The notes: generated by a model from the letters alone, not told the origin. A stretch of DNA of 64,000 nucleotides from Eledone cirrhosa (GCA_964016885.1 OZ024755.1:3968001-4032000); one strand, 5' to 3'. Counted from the first letter of the stretch, positions 279 to 57,832 are shown. Program-made: numbers and translations.

Positions 279-962
279 ACGCGTGTGTGCGCGTATTTAT
301 AGTGGTAACTGGCATTGCCTATGTGCTGAATATTTCCAACAAAATCTTCTTTATGTTGGACTTAAATTATTGAAATTATAGCAATATTCTATAAAGTTCT
401 TTATATACACACTGATTAATACACCTACACATACAGATTCGGTGACACAAGTAGGTATATATATATATATATATATATATATATATATATATATACCTAC
501 CTACTTGAGCTGATCAGTGGCGAAACGCGCGTCACCAACCATTAAAAGTAATGAAGGGGTAACCAATCGTCCTTGTTATTTTATTTCACTATATATATAT
601 GTATATTAATAGCTACATAGAGAAAACTAAGGAAGATGGTTGGTGTGTTTTCAAAATCATTGCAAATCCGTATATGATTTACTTGATGATATTCCGGTTT
701 CTATAGATCTTTAAACTACAGAAATAAATCTTGAGCCATTAAAGCCTAGGATGAAAACCTTACACTAGTTTTTTCCGGATATTTTTTTCTGTTCAAATCC
801 TGACGTGGTCAAGTTTGTCTTTCATCATTTCTGAGTCGATTGTATAAAGTGTCTTTTTAAAACCACCACATGTGACTCTCACGTGACTTTAGTCCAGCCT
901 AAACCATCGCAAGCATTTTTAGGTTTGAGATTATTATCTGCCTTATCTTACGCCACACCTGA

Positions 963-1093
963 GTGCTATTAATGGAGCTTAAACCTCCACAAACGTTGTT
1001 CAATCTAAGGTTATCATCATCATCATCATCATCGTTTAACGTCCATCTTAAATTGAAGAACGTTTGTGGAGGTTTAAGCTCCACTAATGGCAC
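963..1093. repeat. Inverted repeat with about 47-bp arms around a (CAT)n-containing spacer
   Basis: gtgctattaatggagcttaaacctccacaaacgttgttcaatctaag versus cttaaattgaagaacgtttgtggaggtttaagctccactaatggcac. Confidence 0.9.
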
Positions 1094-1794
1094 ATGCAAA
1101 TATATTTACAGTTATATACACGTGTTGGTGGGCACACGTATGTTTATATAATTGTATATTTATATCAACAATTATTTGGCACTGTGTTCTTCTAATATTA
1201 ATATATAGCAAAACCAAGAAAGAATTTCCCGCTTCCTTTTTGCAATTTAAACAGCCATTGGTTACAGGTGAAAATTACAACTACCTCTTAGTGACCTTGC
1301 GTTTAACTGCTAAGACACGAAATTGATTCGTGTGATGGCTGTAGGCGTATATATCTAAACTCTTTATTCTTCGACTGACTGTCTTACACAGCTCCTAGCG
1401 TATCTCTTGATGATGTTTGTTACTATTTCCTCGACTTGGAAAACATAAAGAAACTTGAACATAATTTCAAAAGGTAATACAAACGGCGTGTATCAAATGA
1501 TATTTCCAGAAGGAACGGCGACGCGTGGTGGTAAAAACGTTATCAGATATAAGAATGGAATAGTCGAAAAGGAAGATCTGAGAAGATGCCTGCTGAACCA
1601 AGTAGAAAGTTAATGAACATAAGGTTTTTTCTGTTTATTCAGTCAGACACTTTTCATGTTCTTATGTATGTATGTATGTGTGTGTGTGTGTGTGTGTGTG
1701 TGTGTGTGTGTGTGTATGTATGTGTGTGTGTCTTTCGTTTCTTCTTCATATTAGTAAGCAGCAGTAGTGGATATCAAATATTTCTTGTTCTAGT

Positions 1795-2252
1795 GTATGT
1801 GTATATATATATATACACATATATATATATATATATATATATATATATATACACATACATACATATATATATATATATATATATATATATATATATATAT
1901 ATACACACATACATACATATATATATATATATATATATATATATATACATACATATATATATATATATATATATATATATACACACATACATATATATAT
2001 ATATATATATATATATATATACACACATACATATATATATATATATATATATATACACACATACATATATATATATATATATATATATATATATATATAC
2101 ACACATACATATATATATATATATATACACATACATATATATATATATATACACATACATATATATATATATATATATATATATATATATATATACACAC
2201 ATACATATATATATATACACATATATATATATATATATATATATATATATAT
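1795..2252. repeat. Compound (TA)n/(CA)n microsatellite
   Basis: TA runs punctuated by cacacatacata. Confidence 0.95.
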
Positions 2253-2770
2253 CATGCTCTGTATGTGTAGGTGTCTGTTCTTTGATTTCTTCATATTAAC
2301 GAGAAGTGGTGGTGGTGGTGATGGTGACGATGGTGATAGTGGTGATGGTGACGATGGTGATAGTGGTGATGATGGTGGCGGCGGCGTTGATGGTGATGGC
2401 GGTGATGGTGGATATCAGACGGGAATGTTACAAGAAGGATCATAATAATAAACCAATTAAAACTAGTTCAGTTGATTCTATTAAGATAGAAAGGTTGGGC
2501 GGTAAGGCTCAGGTAAGGCAGAGTAAAAACTGATTTGATTATCGATTAAGTTGATTATAACCATTCCGTAAATATTTGTGGTTTGTGCTAATGTCATGAA
2601 ATCAATAAAACGACTGAGAAAGGTGGGGACTTGATAGAGACAAACACACTGGACTAAATATCTTATGTCAGTTTTTTTTAGTTTGAATTTAGTTTGTTTC
2701 GTGTTTGTTTTCTTTGGGGGTTCACAAAAATACGTTCCGAGATCCTAAAATAATATGAGAATAATAATAA

Positions 2771-3066
2771 TATTTTCTACTTTAGGCACAAGGCCAGCAA
2801 TTTGGGGGGAGGGGAAAGTCGATTAAATGAACCTTAGTGCATTACTGGTACTTTATTTTTATTGTTGCTATTACTATTGCTACGAAGCTTGTTGTACGAC
2901 GCTCTATCGATTCTGCCAATCCACCGCCCTTAATAGTAATAATTGTTTCTACTTTTGGCACAAGGCCAGCAAATACCCAGTGTATTACTGGTACTTTATT
3001 TTATCGACCTCTGTATGGATGAAAGGCAAAGTTAACCTCGGCGGGATTTGAACTCAGATCGTAAAA
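2771..3066 (-). mobile_element. SINE family A: degenerate long-form copy plus 5'-truncated short-form copy
   Basis: Shared core gcctttcatcc...gtcgataaaataaagtaccag and tail ggccttgtgccaaaagtagaaacaatt; cgcccttaatagtaataat duplicated at about 2924 and 3073 (TSD of second copy). Confidence 0.85.
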
Positions 3067-55270: not shown

Positions 55271-55676
55271 TATATATATATATATATATATATATATATA
55301 TATATATATATATATATATATATATATTGTTATGGATCCAATATACATAGTCTGATTGTGTACAATGTTTAGAGCAAGCTGTTTGTAATACACATATGTA
55401 AAGAAAGACAAAACCGTACGTTCTTGGCAAGGAACTGTCTCTATGTAACTGACTACAAATATCTTAGGTTCTTGGCACTCTAATTACCAGTCTTGAGTTG
55501 AAAGCGCTTTCAGTCATATAAATGTTTTTCAACTCATACAGTGTCATCAAATGTACATACTGGTGTGAAAGAAATATTATGAAATTGCTAAAACATAACA
55601 CACCAGGAATAGTTTTGTTTTAATCACTGTACTGAAATATAAATATGCTTAAAATCTATTGTAGTCTTACAATAGT

Positions 55677-55975
55677 GGAGGTGCGTTGCCTAGTGCAAAA
55701 GGTGTTGGACTTACGATTATAATGTCGTGGATTCGATTTCTAGACTGGGTTGTGTGTTGCTTTCTTGAGCAAGTTATTTCATTTCACGTTGCTACGGTGG
55801 TAAGGATGTTGAACTTACAACCGTAATGTTGTAGTTTCGATTCCTGGACTGGGTTGTATGTTGTGTTCTTGAGCAAAACACTTAATTTCACGTTGCTCCA
55901 GTATACTCAACTAAAAATGAGTACCAGCAATAGCTGGGGGTTTAACCCTGTGATAGACTGGTGTCCTGTCCAGAG
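55677..55975 (+). mobile_element. SINE family B, partial copy followed by fuller copy
   Basis: Two tRNA-like heads with ttcgatt B boxes and ttcttgagcaa core; gatagactggtgtcctgtccag. Confidence 0.78.
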
Positions 55976-57069
55976 AGCAACCTTTCATCGTTTTGAGTTG
56001 GATAAAACATTATGAGTCTAGTACTGGGGTCGAATCTAGCTCCATTTCTCTTTCTCTCAATCTCACTTTCTAGCATCCTTTGGAAGGAATCAGACCTGGA
56101 AAGGAGAGGAGAATGCCAGGTTTAACAAAAGAAAAGCCCTAGAAACGCTGCATGTCAATACGGCGCCTCTACAAGTCCCTAGCCAGCTATGGACCCATAC
56201 ATACATGTTTGATCAGGTCTGACATGAGAAAAGCAAACAACAGATTAAAGCTGTCTCATGTTGCTGTTTATCGTATTAAATATCACATTAATTATTGATT
56301 TCTAGCATTGGCAGAAGACCAGAAATCTACAATAAAACCTGGTGATTGACTAGTTCATATATCATGGAACATATAACGAGGAAAAGAAAAGTTAAACTCA
56401 ACGTGTTTCACTCTAACAATTATGCCACATTAAATATAAATATTTTTGTTTTATCTTTATATTAATATTGATATTAACGTATTAAATTATTTAATTGAAA
56501 TAAACCGGAAAGGTTACATTGACCTCATTGTATATTGTTCAGGAATACTGTGTGTGTGTGTGTGTGTGTGTGTGTGTGTGTGTGTGTGTGTGTGTGTGTG
56601 TGTGTGTGTGTGTGTGTGTGAGAGAGAGAGAGTCGGGGCCCGATGGCTGAGCTCCTGTCGTTTCGACAGCTAATCCCAGACTCATATATATGTATATGTA
56701 TGTATGTATATTTACACACTCACACACACACATACACACACACATATATATATGTGTGTATATATATATACATGTGTATGTATGTGTGTGTGTGTGTGTC
56801 ATAATGAAAGGCCAACTACATTTGTATGTTTCCATCAAAAGTAGACAAACAAAATATAAAAAGTGAAACAAGTTTGTCCGGATGTGGGGTGTTAAGTTGA
56901 AACACATAATAAGAGGAAAGGGAAATATAACATTTTATTGTTTTGTTCCTATCACTATGTTATTGAAGCTGTCTCTTTGCCTATTGTTTCCTACTGGCCC
57001 CGACCCTGGAGGGTTCGTGGCCCAGAATAACATGCACGAGCAAGGGAGAAAGTAGAGCTGAGAAAGGAA

Positions 57070-57208
57070 GAAGTGTGTTTGGAAGGGAGAGGTGTATTTA
57101 GAAGGGAGAGGTGTGTTTAGAAGGGAGAGATGTGTCTAGAAGAGAGGGGTGTATTTAGAAGAAGGGGATGTATTTAGAAGAGAGGGGTGTATTTAGAAGA
57201 GAGGGGTG
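57070..57208. repeat. 20-bp purine-rich minisatellite, about 7 copies
   Basis: gtgtatttagaagagagggg-like units. Confidence 0.8.
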
Positions 57209-57690
57209 GGAGCATAGATAGACATAACAAGGATTGGATATTTTTCGGTTCGGTTGTAATGTCACTCAATAGATTGATGAAATATTACTAACAGGAAGGA
57301 AGTAGATGTGTGTGGGGGGGTGAAGAGTGGTGTGAAAGGGAGAGGGAAAAGCTACAATAAAATAAGATCACTAAAATATATACAAAGTGGTATCATAGAT
57401 AATTATGGTAATGAAGGTTAAGAGAAAGGGGGGGAAGGGTGACATGGAAATCAATGGAAGAGGAAGTAACCGTTTTTAGGTAATGATAAGGACAAGGTCT
57501 GAAGAATATTTCTTACGTCTGTTATTACTGTTGTTGTTACATGATACTTTTTGGGATCATAATATGGTATGTGTGAAGGCATATATATATATATATATAT
57601 ATATATATATATAAGTAGTAACACAACAGTTAGTTCACCATACCGAGAACAATTGTTTCACCTTATGCGGATCTTCAATATATATATCTG

Positions 57691-57832
57691 GAAAAAAAGG
57701 AAAAGAATGACTTCACTTGTAGTTCTAAACAAATTGATTTAATTTTATAATACCAACTCATAATATTATAATATTATAAAATTAAATCAATTTGTTTAGA
57801 ACTACAAGGGAAGTCATTCTTTTCCTTTTTTC
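57691..57832. repeat. Inverted repeat with about 62-bp arms in TA context
   Basis: gaaaaaaaggaaaagaatgacttcacttgtagttctaaacaaattgatttaattttataata inverted at 57772-57832. Confidence 0.9.

Follow-up and report, generated by a model that had tools for sequence, protein, structure and literature searches.

A 64,000-nucleotide (nt) stretch of Eledone cirrhosa DNA (GCA_964016885.1 OZ024755.1:3968001-4032000), referred to here as the window, contains short cassettes that fold back on themselves beside runs of TA repeats, as well as motifs resembling minimal hammerhead ribozymes, and the question is what kind of element left them there. We propose, with a probability of roughly 0.8, that the cassettes are 5'-truncated insertions of several endonuclease-bearing (EN+) families of Penelope-like elements (PLEs), likely built as hairpins at insertion. 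A preliminary description of the window had linked the cassettes to PLEs, to many families and to TA targeting, and this is supported by the geometry of the arms, the sibling copies, the excess of hammerheads over chance, the TA flanks and published features of PLE insertions.

Fold-back cassettes and their TA flanks

Six fold-backs set in (TA)n had been described, and all six exist. One arm adjoins a TA run in five of them, whereas the fold-back at 41483 lies 88 and 61 nt from TA. Self-BLAST of the window, in which 10,372 bases had been masked, together with arm alignments gave fold-backs at 5672-5966, 41483-42004, 43693-43815, 51457-51733 and 57688-57839; the fold-back at 55104-55202 was not in the BLAST output and was seen by arm alignment and directly in the sequence. 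Shuffled windows yielded local inverted matches at a rate of one per 20 shuffles. The fold-backs are listed below, each line closing with the distance in nt, left/right, to the nearest TA run of at least four units (SINE, short interspersed element).

5672..6095: fold-back A (5668), arms of 148 nt with 2 mismatches (5668-5815 / 5823-5970 with TA edges), loop of 7 nt, one-sided extension of about 125 nt as far as the following TA run, without a hammerhead core; 0/129
41395..42065: fold-back B (41483), arms 41483-41902 / 41919-42004, the left arm broken by two SINE insertions with a 9-bp duplication at 41521, 41708 and 41855, extensions on both sides, no core; 88/61
43613..43815: fold-back C (43611), tail of 80 nt (43613-43692), head-to-head arms from 43693 and to 43815, half core at 43776 on the plus strand (GAAA, 5-bp stem with GAGCTC loop, UC; no CUGANGA); 80/0
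51457..51772: fold-back D (51460), arms 51457-51643 / 51649-51733, the right arm without about 125 nt, ribozyme included, tail of about 39 nt; 0/39
55104..55270: fold-back E (55107), left arm with CUGAAGA (55141-55147, minus strand) and the 5' strand of stem I, without 23 nt; right arm beginning in stem II, with GAAA-CAAUUG-UU; tail of about 68 nt; 9/71
57688..57872: fold-back F (57691), arms of about 70 nt, loop of 19 nt, tail of 33 nt, no core; 0/33

One end at most 12 nt and the other at most 130 nt from TA was found for five of the six fold-backs and for 0.3-0.9% of random unmasked intervals, a comparison to be read with the fact that the six had been preselected for TA proximity in the preliminary description. 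A one-sided tail, 33-129 nt long and ending at the next TA run, was likewise seen in five of six. The 23 nt missing from the left arm of fold-back E fall between two GGTGAA repeats. Two more local inverted repeats, at 963-1093 and 13032-13076, are distant from TA runs.

Such hairpins could be assembly or library fold-back artefacts and the hammerheads chance matches; none of the contig pieces listed spans a hairpin, and the arms at 5668 are 99% alike. Arm asymmetries are, however, present in all six. Substitutions separate the arms in six of six, SINE insertions with target duplications interrupt 41483, deletions of about 125 and 23 nt affect single arms at 51460 and 55107, tails are present, and the strict hammerhead motifs described below exceed shuffle means 75- to 180-fold. 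Because the arms have aged separately, through SINE insertions, deletions and substitutions, assembly fold-backs are ruled out, and we regard the artefact explanation as hardly credible.

Sibling copies and fold points

The cassettes had been called sequence-unrelated, which is correct for the six among themselves, but two of them have close siblings in the window. By self-BLAST, 43613-43695 matches 54973-55055 at 93% and 55151-55199 matches 57614-57662 at 96%. The sibling copies are as follows.

54965..55055, plus strand: sibling of fold-back C with identical two outer ends and an inverted arm of just 8-9 nt
57614..57678, minus strand: single-arm sibling of fold-back E with TA runs on either side, cut at core position 3, its inner 3' end the same as that of E within 3 nt

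The copies at 43613-43815 and 54965-55055 have the outer end of the tail and the inner end (43815, 54965) in common, but the inverted arm measures about 60 nt in the first and 8-9 nt in the second. Those at 55104 and 57614 share the inner end, 57614 being without a partner arm. These two pairs indicate that the 3' ends are fixed and that 5' ends and fold points vary. The idea of fold-back units of fixed length is thus not borne out, since siblings with common outer ends have different fold points. Upstream of 54973, 8,543 reads of run X8 (see below) continue with the sequence of the 43611 arm and show no fold-back there. A miniature inverted-repeat transposable element (MITE) or palindromic DNA transposon was rejected for families C and E on account of variable arms, one-sided tails and single-arm copies.

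The arms of C, D and E are joined at their 5' ends, because the motif strand runs outward from the fold; in A, B and F (5668, 41483 and 57691), which have no motif, arm orientation is not readable. At 55107 the tail-less arm extends 5 nt above the core and the tail-bearing arm begins in stem II, at 54965 the tail-less arm spans 9 nt above the inner end against 3 nt for the tail-bearing one, and at 43611 the tail-less arm tentatively extends further upstream too. As a single complementary DNA (cDNA) that is primed from the tail end and then copies itself would lengthen the tail-bearing arm, two cDNAs joined at 1-2 nt of microhomology are the simpler reading. Seven arm ends have a visible 5' boundary together with part of the 5' core or stem II. 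Four of these (57678, 54900, 43370 and the left arm of 55107) fall no more than 5 nt from core position 3, and the remaining three lie about 17 nt inside (right arm of 55107) and about 41 and 58 nt upstream, in a sample of seven that is biased because the copies were found via their core. Insertions form nests in single TA tracts, one with 54900, 54965 and 55104 and another with 57614 and 57688.

Hammerhead motifs

A strict descriptor (CUGANGA, stem I of at least 3 bp, stem II of at least 2 bp, palindromic stem III) gave three matches in the window, against a mean of 0.017 in dinucleotide block shuffles, none of 60 reaching three; hammerheads are thus above shuffled-sequence chance. With one stem III mismatch allowed, five matches were obtained against a shuffle mean of 0.067. 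The first position of stem II was left unpaired-tolerant, as the best motifs carry U-U or A-C there. The motif at 54902 was found by a descriptor with a longer stem III and one GAAA change (1 versus 0.02, reached by 1 of 100 shuffles). Descriptors without stem I came out near chance (4 versus 1.05, reached by 2 of 60 shuffles; 6 versus 3.4, reached by 10 of 60), and a half descriptor of GAAA, stem III and UH was not above chance in the window (4 versus 1.64, maximum 7), for which reason the half motif of fold-back C is judged by its context alone.

Nine cores had been listed in the preliminary description. Three of them are complete (4524, 51571, 22807) and two nearly complete (54901, 57643), whereas four are decayed or doubtful (51885, 3460, 506, 6440). 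Their assignment to fold-backs stands for 51460 and 55107, which contain CUGANGA, and in half for 43611, but 5668, 41483 and 57691 contain no core. TA runs do not bound the motifs at 4559, 22810, 19450 and 3460. The motifs are listed here by position of the motif or cassette.

4522..4566, minus strand: complete minimal hammerhead, core 4559, stem I of 7 bp, palindromic stem III
51571..51609, minus strand: complete minimal type I hammerhead in fold-back D, core 51604, stem I of 5 bp, CUGAAGA, stem II of U-U plus 3 bp with GAAA loop, palindromic stem III, UU
22807..22853, plus strand: complete but weak hammerhead, core 22810, stem I of 3 bp, stem II of 4 bp, one stem III mismatch
54898..54950, plus strand: hammerhead stub with TA runs on either side, stem I of 4 bp, CUGAUGA, stem II of U-U plus 3 bp, GAGA where the family has GAAA, stem III of 4 bp with 8-nt loop, UA
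43345..43393, minus strand: sibling of the 54900 stub, cut within the core, 33/42 identical
51815..51974, minus strand: older family with decayed hammerhead, core 51916, C3G, no stem I
about 3440-3574, plus strand (core 3460, U4G), and 28857-28924: relatives of the 51916 family
441..589, plus strand: doubtful cassette, short inverted flanks about a (TA)20 run, defective CUGAUCA core at 510 in the right part only
19393..19458, minus strand: further plausible hammerhead at 19450, absent from the earlier list, stem I of 8 bp

The motif listed at 57643 (57678) breaks off at C3, where a TA run begins; the core and the stem I strand that it lacks are present in its sibling, at 55141-55147. The 506 motif reads CUGAUCA and is without stems I and II, the 6440 core was recovered by no descriptor, and an additional descriptor match at 52171 (plus strand) is doubtful. 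At 54923, where the stub in the window has G, A makes up more than 99% of read depth in runs X1, X2 and X8 and 98% in X4. Overall, most copies have lost or broken their ribozyme. In three inverted structures (441-536, 51457-51733 and 55104-55202) one arm has lost the core wholly or partly by deletion and the other retains it. The inverted flanks of the TA run at 456-495 are resembled by a 7-nt inverted repeat, CCTTAAG / CTTAAGG, around a (TA)31 run at 41325-41409.

In D and E the hammerhead lies about 35-115 nt from a 3' end, and three families in the window have U at both ends of stem II. In the dimer predicted for the 51604 motif, stems I and III form intermolecularly, and its energy is -18.0 kcal/mol, against -10.0 kcal/mol for a pair of separate monomers. 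Co-folding of the other seven slices mostly gave a lowest-energy dimer with a non-hammerhead fold. No Rfam hammerhead was found among the 150 of 378 window matches listed, and the one Rfam hammerhead match obtained, HH9 on the 4559 motif, is sub-threshold (13.4 bits, E 4.6). Rfam matches on the cassettes are of microRNA type and sub-threshold only; a microRNA identity was rejected since the scores are far under the gathering threshold. Two hammerhead words searched in metagenomes gave zero loci each.

Distant relatives of family C, compared with 43745-43815, occur at 56631-56690 (minus strand), 57893-57962 (plus strand) and 62548-62628 and are bounded by TA or GA; the copy at 62548 resembles a decayed asymmetric fold-back. 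They have in common the GAGCTC palindrome and a small GTCGG/CCGAC hairpin, and CUGANGA occurs in none of them. Family C may carry a variant ribozyme or a half-lost one. Its fold centre (43745-43765) has two words of 8-9 nt in common with the loops of stem III in both copies of the 54900 family (54925-54945, 43355-43375), and the two families are neighbours at two loci, by chance or by a family link, at X4 depths 150-fold apart. A single composite element of the 54900 and 54965 pieces was rejected because their order differs at 43345/43613.

The ribozyme-free fold-backs at 5668, 41483 and 57691 could instead be palindromic non-autonomous DNA transposons with a TA target, their tails being unrelated neighbouring inserts. 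Tc1-mariner elements target TA, 5668 is a near-perfect palindrome with TA at both arm ends, and a core is absent from all three. In O. vulgaris, activity is reported both for MITEs and for Tc1-mariner elements (PMC13282606). On the other hand, 5668 and 57691 share with C, D and E a layout of TA, arm, arm, tail and TA that fewer than 1% of random intervals show, Naiad PLEs are published without canonical hammerheads, and a short stub can sit entirely downstream of a hammerhead. Such transposons would also leave C, D and E without an explanation, and for the three ribozyme-free copies we find this origin quite improbable.

Read depth and abundance

Four public read runs were mapped to 51390-57990: X1 and X2, which are one sample and possibly the one from which the assembly was made, X4, which is another organism (B), and X8, which consists of restriction-site-associated DNA (RAD) reads. 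Contig depth in X1, summed at 85% likeness and to be taken as an order of magnitude, was 6.6-7.7 for single-copy sequence, 75,000-769,000 in fold-back D, 766,000 at 54923, 1,215,000 at 55001, 309,000 in the tail of E (55218), 603,000 at 51871 and 6.4 million in the SINE. X8 gave hundreds to thousands of reads in family bins versus about 0-1 in unique bins. The families C, D, E, 54900 and 51885 are multi-copy, at 10^4-10^5-fold over single-copy depth, in agreement with the multi-copy character proposed for the cassettes. The fold-backs at 5668 and 41483 fall outside the mapped region; the bin of 57691 is shared with 57614, and the last bin was 0 in all runs. X8 read end-points at 51639, 51720, 51965 and 55159 were rejected as element boundaries, as they lie at AATT or GAATTC words and were read as restriction cuts.

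In X4, depth was 620 for family C versus 35,000-165,000 for D, E and 54900 at the compared sites, from which we conclude that C is recent or lineage-specific. At 55001 this amounts to an approximately 2,000-fold lower depth in organism B (620 versus 1.2 million), while the SINE was not lower.

These depths bear on the possibility that the abundant families are short non-autonomous elements of 100-400 nt, with a hammerhead near the 5' end, which borrow the PLE protein and insert by the same mechanism. Pieces just 50-300 nt long reach up to 10^5-fold single-copy depth although the 64 kb showed no coding remnant, four of seven visible 5' ends fall close to core position 3, the drop of family C in organism B is not shared by the SINE, and non-autonomous Chlamys elements as well as vertebrate retrozymes derived from pseudo-long terminal repeats (pLTRs) have been published (the latter in bioRxiv 10.64898/2026.07.22.740005). 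Yet the 5' ends vary (that of D lies 41 nt above the core, and 54965 stops 9 nt above the inner end), tandem units are absent, heavy truncation is usual in PLEs, and the seven ends come from the core-biased sample. We consider short elements of this kind improbable and retain truncated PLE insertions as the preferred origin.

Comparison with known elements

In published PLE insertions an inverted 5'-truncated copy stands at the 5' end with a 30-40-bp tail on one side; for Penelope, the head-to-head arrangement is the most frequent, with the tail on one inverted repeat, and self-priming on an antisense template has been proposed for rotifer Penelope (PMC3846280). A PLE protein purified from an anole nicks AT-rich DNA on both strands and extends both, uses uncleaved RNA and starts at two internal RNA sites, the spacing of which equals the tail (PMC11167929). 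Naiad, Neptune and Hydra elements insert preferentially at (TA)n; for Octopus, PLEs of the Hydra and Naiad groups that share this preference are on record, among them Hydra-1_Obim from Octopus bimaculoides (PMC8557442). For O. vulgaris, 31 recently active PLE families were reported (PMC13282606).

The likeness to EN+ PLE insertions extends to the head-to-head truncated copy (arms of C, D and E), the one-sided tail, palindromes or microhomology at the junctions (PMC3846280, PMC8557442, PMC11167929), the AT-rich or (TA)n target (five of six fold-backs), two fixed 3' ends (family C) and an uncleaved hammerhead in DNA copies, here of type I and near the 3' end in the D, E and 54900 families; the copies are also dispersed and multi-copy. 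As far as can be judged at the DNA level, every testable feature of such insertions appears to be present, target duplications being unreadable inside TA runs; the window has no long copy in which direct pLTRs, formed by partial tandems, could show. The cassettes differ in being just 50-430-nt stubs, with no coding part, from many families per window and at very high depth.

With the Hydra clade, the cassettes share the (TA)n target, a hammerhead near the 3' end and, in three window families, a short stem II with U at each end; of the 25 Hydra-clade families listed in File S2 of PMC8557442, 14 have this stem II by an eye count. Around the core, 15 consecutive letters are common to the 51604 motif and Hydra-1_Crog (by eye). 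In contrast, stem III is a loopless palindrome in D and E, and no sequence match to Hydra-1_Obim was found. Three motifs would seem to have the Hydra-clade hammerhead layout. Membership of the clade is read from the reverse transcriptase phylogeny and from an endonuclease that lacks CCHH and carries a CxCX5C linker; as neither protein was seen here, the cassettes are not assigned to a clade. (TA)n is a target of Neptune and Naiad as well. The minimal type I hammerheads of metazoan PLEs (PMC4209133) are similar in the short stem I, the dimer-suited palindromic stem III, the extra base after A9 and the occurrence mostly as single dispersed truncated copies, and opposite-strand hammerhead pairs 100-700 bp apart have been reported for them (PMC4209133). 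They differ from three window families, which have U-U at the base of stem II in place of the usual G10.1-C11.1, and from two window families with a longer stem III plus a palindromic loop.

The preliminary description had taken the absence of an RT or GIY-YIG open reading frame (ORF) to suggest that the elements may be non-autonomous and retrozyme-like. This step is not supported, as truncation is normal for PLEs, tandem ribozyme units are lacking and fold points vary. Retrozymes are direct tandem repeats of two or more units, every one of which contains a complete hammerhead (bioRxiv 10.64898/2026.07.22.740005), and a hammerhead-bearing direct tandem was not found among the window self-matches, so that a retrozyme was rejected. 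The cassettes resemble non-LTR retrozymes (bioRxiv 10.64898/2026.07.22.740005, PMC7229834) in being short, non-coding and PLE-related with a type I hammerhead, and differ in being dispersed, inverted, variable in length and mostly without a whole ribozyme. A literature search on octopus hammerhead ribozymes gave no account of such stubs in titles and the beginnings of abstracts; the families may already be catalogued, e.g. in the O. vulgaris repeat library of PMC13282606, Repbase or Dfam.

Proposed origin of the cassettes

Several observations weigh against an origin of the cassettes from EN+ PLEs. No reverse transcriptase (RT) or GIY-YIG Pfam match was obtained among the 209 frames tested of 347 non-simple frames of at least 45 amino acids, an absence that is expected because the copies are truncated. 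The descriptors detected no ribozyme trace in 5668, 41483 and 57691, and CUGANGA is absent from every window copy of family C. Tails of 68-129 nt in four of the six fold-backs exceed the published 30-40 nt, and 41483 is extended on both sides. A search of the PMC8557442 supplement for six window words, each in one orientation and limited by line breaks, gave no match, and by eye the published Naiad and Hydra consensi from octopus do not match the cassettes at their 3' ends. In addition, the loopless stem III of D and E contrasts with the short hairpin of Hydra, later one-arm deletions may blur the two-primer argument, and summed contig depth is not copy number.

With these points taken into account, we still favour truncated EN+ PLE insertions, which could have arisen as follows. 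Judging from the published in vitro work, the RT/GIY-YIG protein of the element would nick both strands of a TA run, and each nick would prime reverse transcription of uncleaved RNA. For this, each would use one of two fixed RNA positions, both downstream of the hammerhead, and the interval between these would become the tail, in keeping with the fixed ends observed. Both cDNAs would end prematurely, in many cases within the ribozyme core or a little upstream of it, and would be joined 5' end to 5' end at the 1-2 nt of microhomology seen at the junctions. New copies would enter the same TA tract and make the observed nests, and the point changes, one-arm deletions and SINE insertions now visible in the arms would have followed. 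Most copies are likely dead, and ribozyme action, whether dimeric or protein-assisted, is predicted for the parent transcript alone.

Other repeats in the window

The window is non-coding animal DNA with a G+C content of 34.6%, rich in TA, CA and TG microsatellites. One SINE segment of about 115 nt, which we take to be octopus-type, had 39 full or partial matches in the 64-kb window by self-BLAST. Its copies, e.g. at 4775-4960, 41530-41863 and 54393-54700, have AAT-rich target duplications; two lie back to back at 41530-41854, and the SINE is the most abundant repeat by read depth. A repeat of about 300 nt is present in three copies that are 92-98% identical (16696-17006, 62744-63027 and 63090-63400), with a C2H2 zinc-finger fragment encoded on the minus strand; three sub-cut-off C2H2 finger fragments were the sole repeated Pfam matches in the 209 tested frames. 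A near-perfect tandem array of a 37-nt unit covers about 1.7 kb (23512-25185). Another dispersed family, with tandem duplications of about 150 nt, occurs at 21362-21693, 28015-28472, 52981-53067 and 58241-58420; two of its copies adjoin TA runs, and the strict descriptors find no hammerhead in it. The translation of 19615-20027 (minus strand) presumably resembles the C-terminal end of an RTE-type long interspersed element (LINE) protein and has no match in Pfam; its end lies about 170 nt upstream of the hammerhead at 19450, which is on that strand too.

Implications

The stubs likely represent a known kind of genomic debris and not a new system, probably from uncurated PLE families in a TA-rich genome. 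Repeat libraries could misfile them as MITEs, SINEs or microRNA hairpins, and the window is predicted to add natural variants of the minimal hammerhead. There is a small chance that they are instead ORF-less, hammerhead-headed mini-elements with tens to hundreds of thousands of copies each and one lineage-specific burst, which would live as SINE-like parasites of (TA)n-targeting PLEs. Their short RNA would begin just upstream of the core, and two RNA copies, which the palindromic stem III may keep together, would be primed as twins, which would explain both the like arms and a new hairpin per insertion. Should the families turn out to have ORF-less masters, they would make up a class of PLE parasites that is abundant and not arranged in tandem. 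At 10^4-10^5 copies, the families would provide a large natural data set of junctions on how PLE inverted ends arise, from two primed cDNAs or from a self-primed one, and the two or three readable junctions favour two cDNAs.

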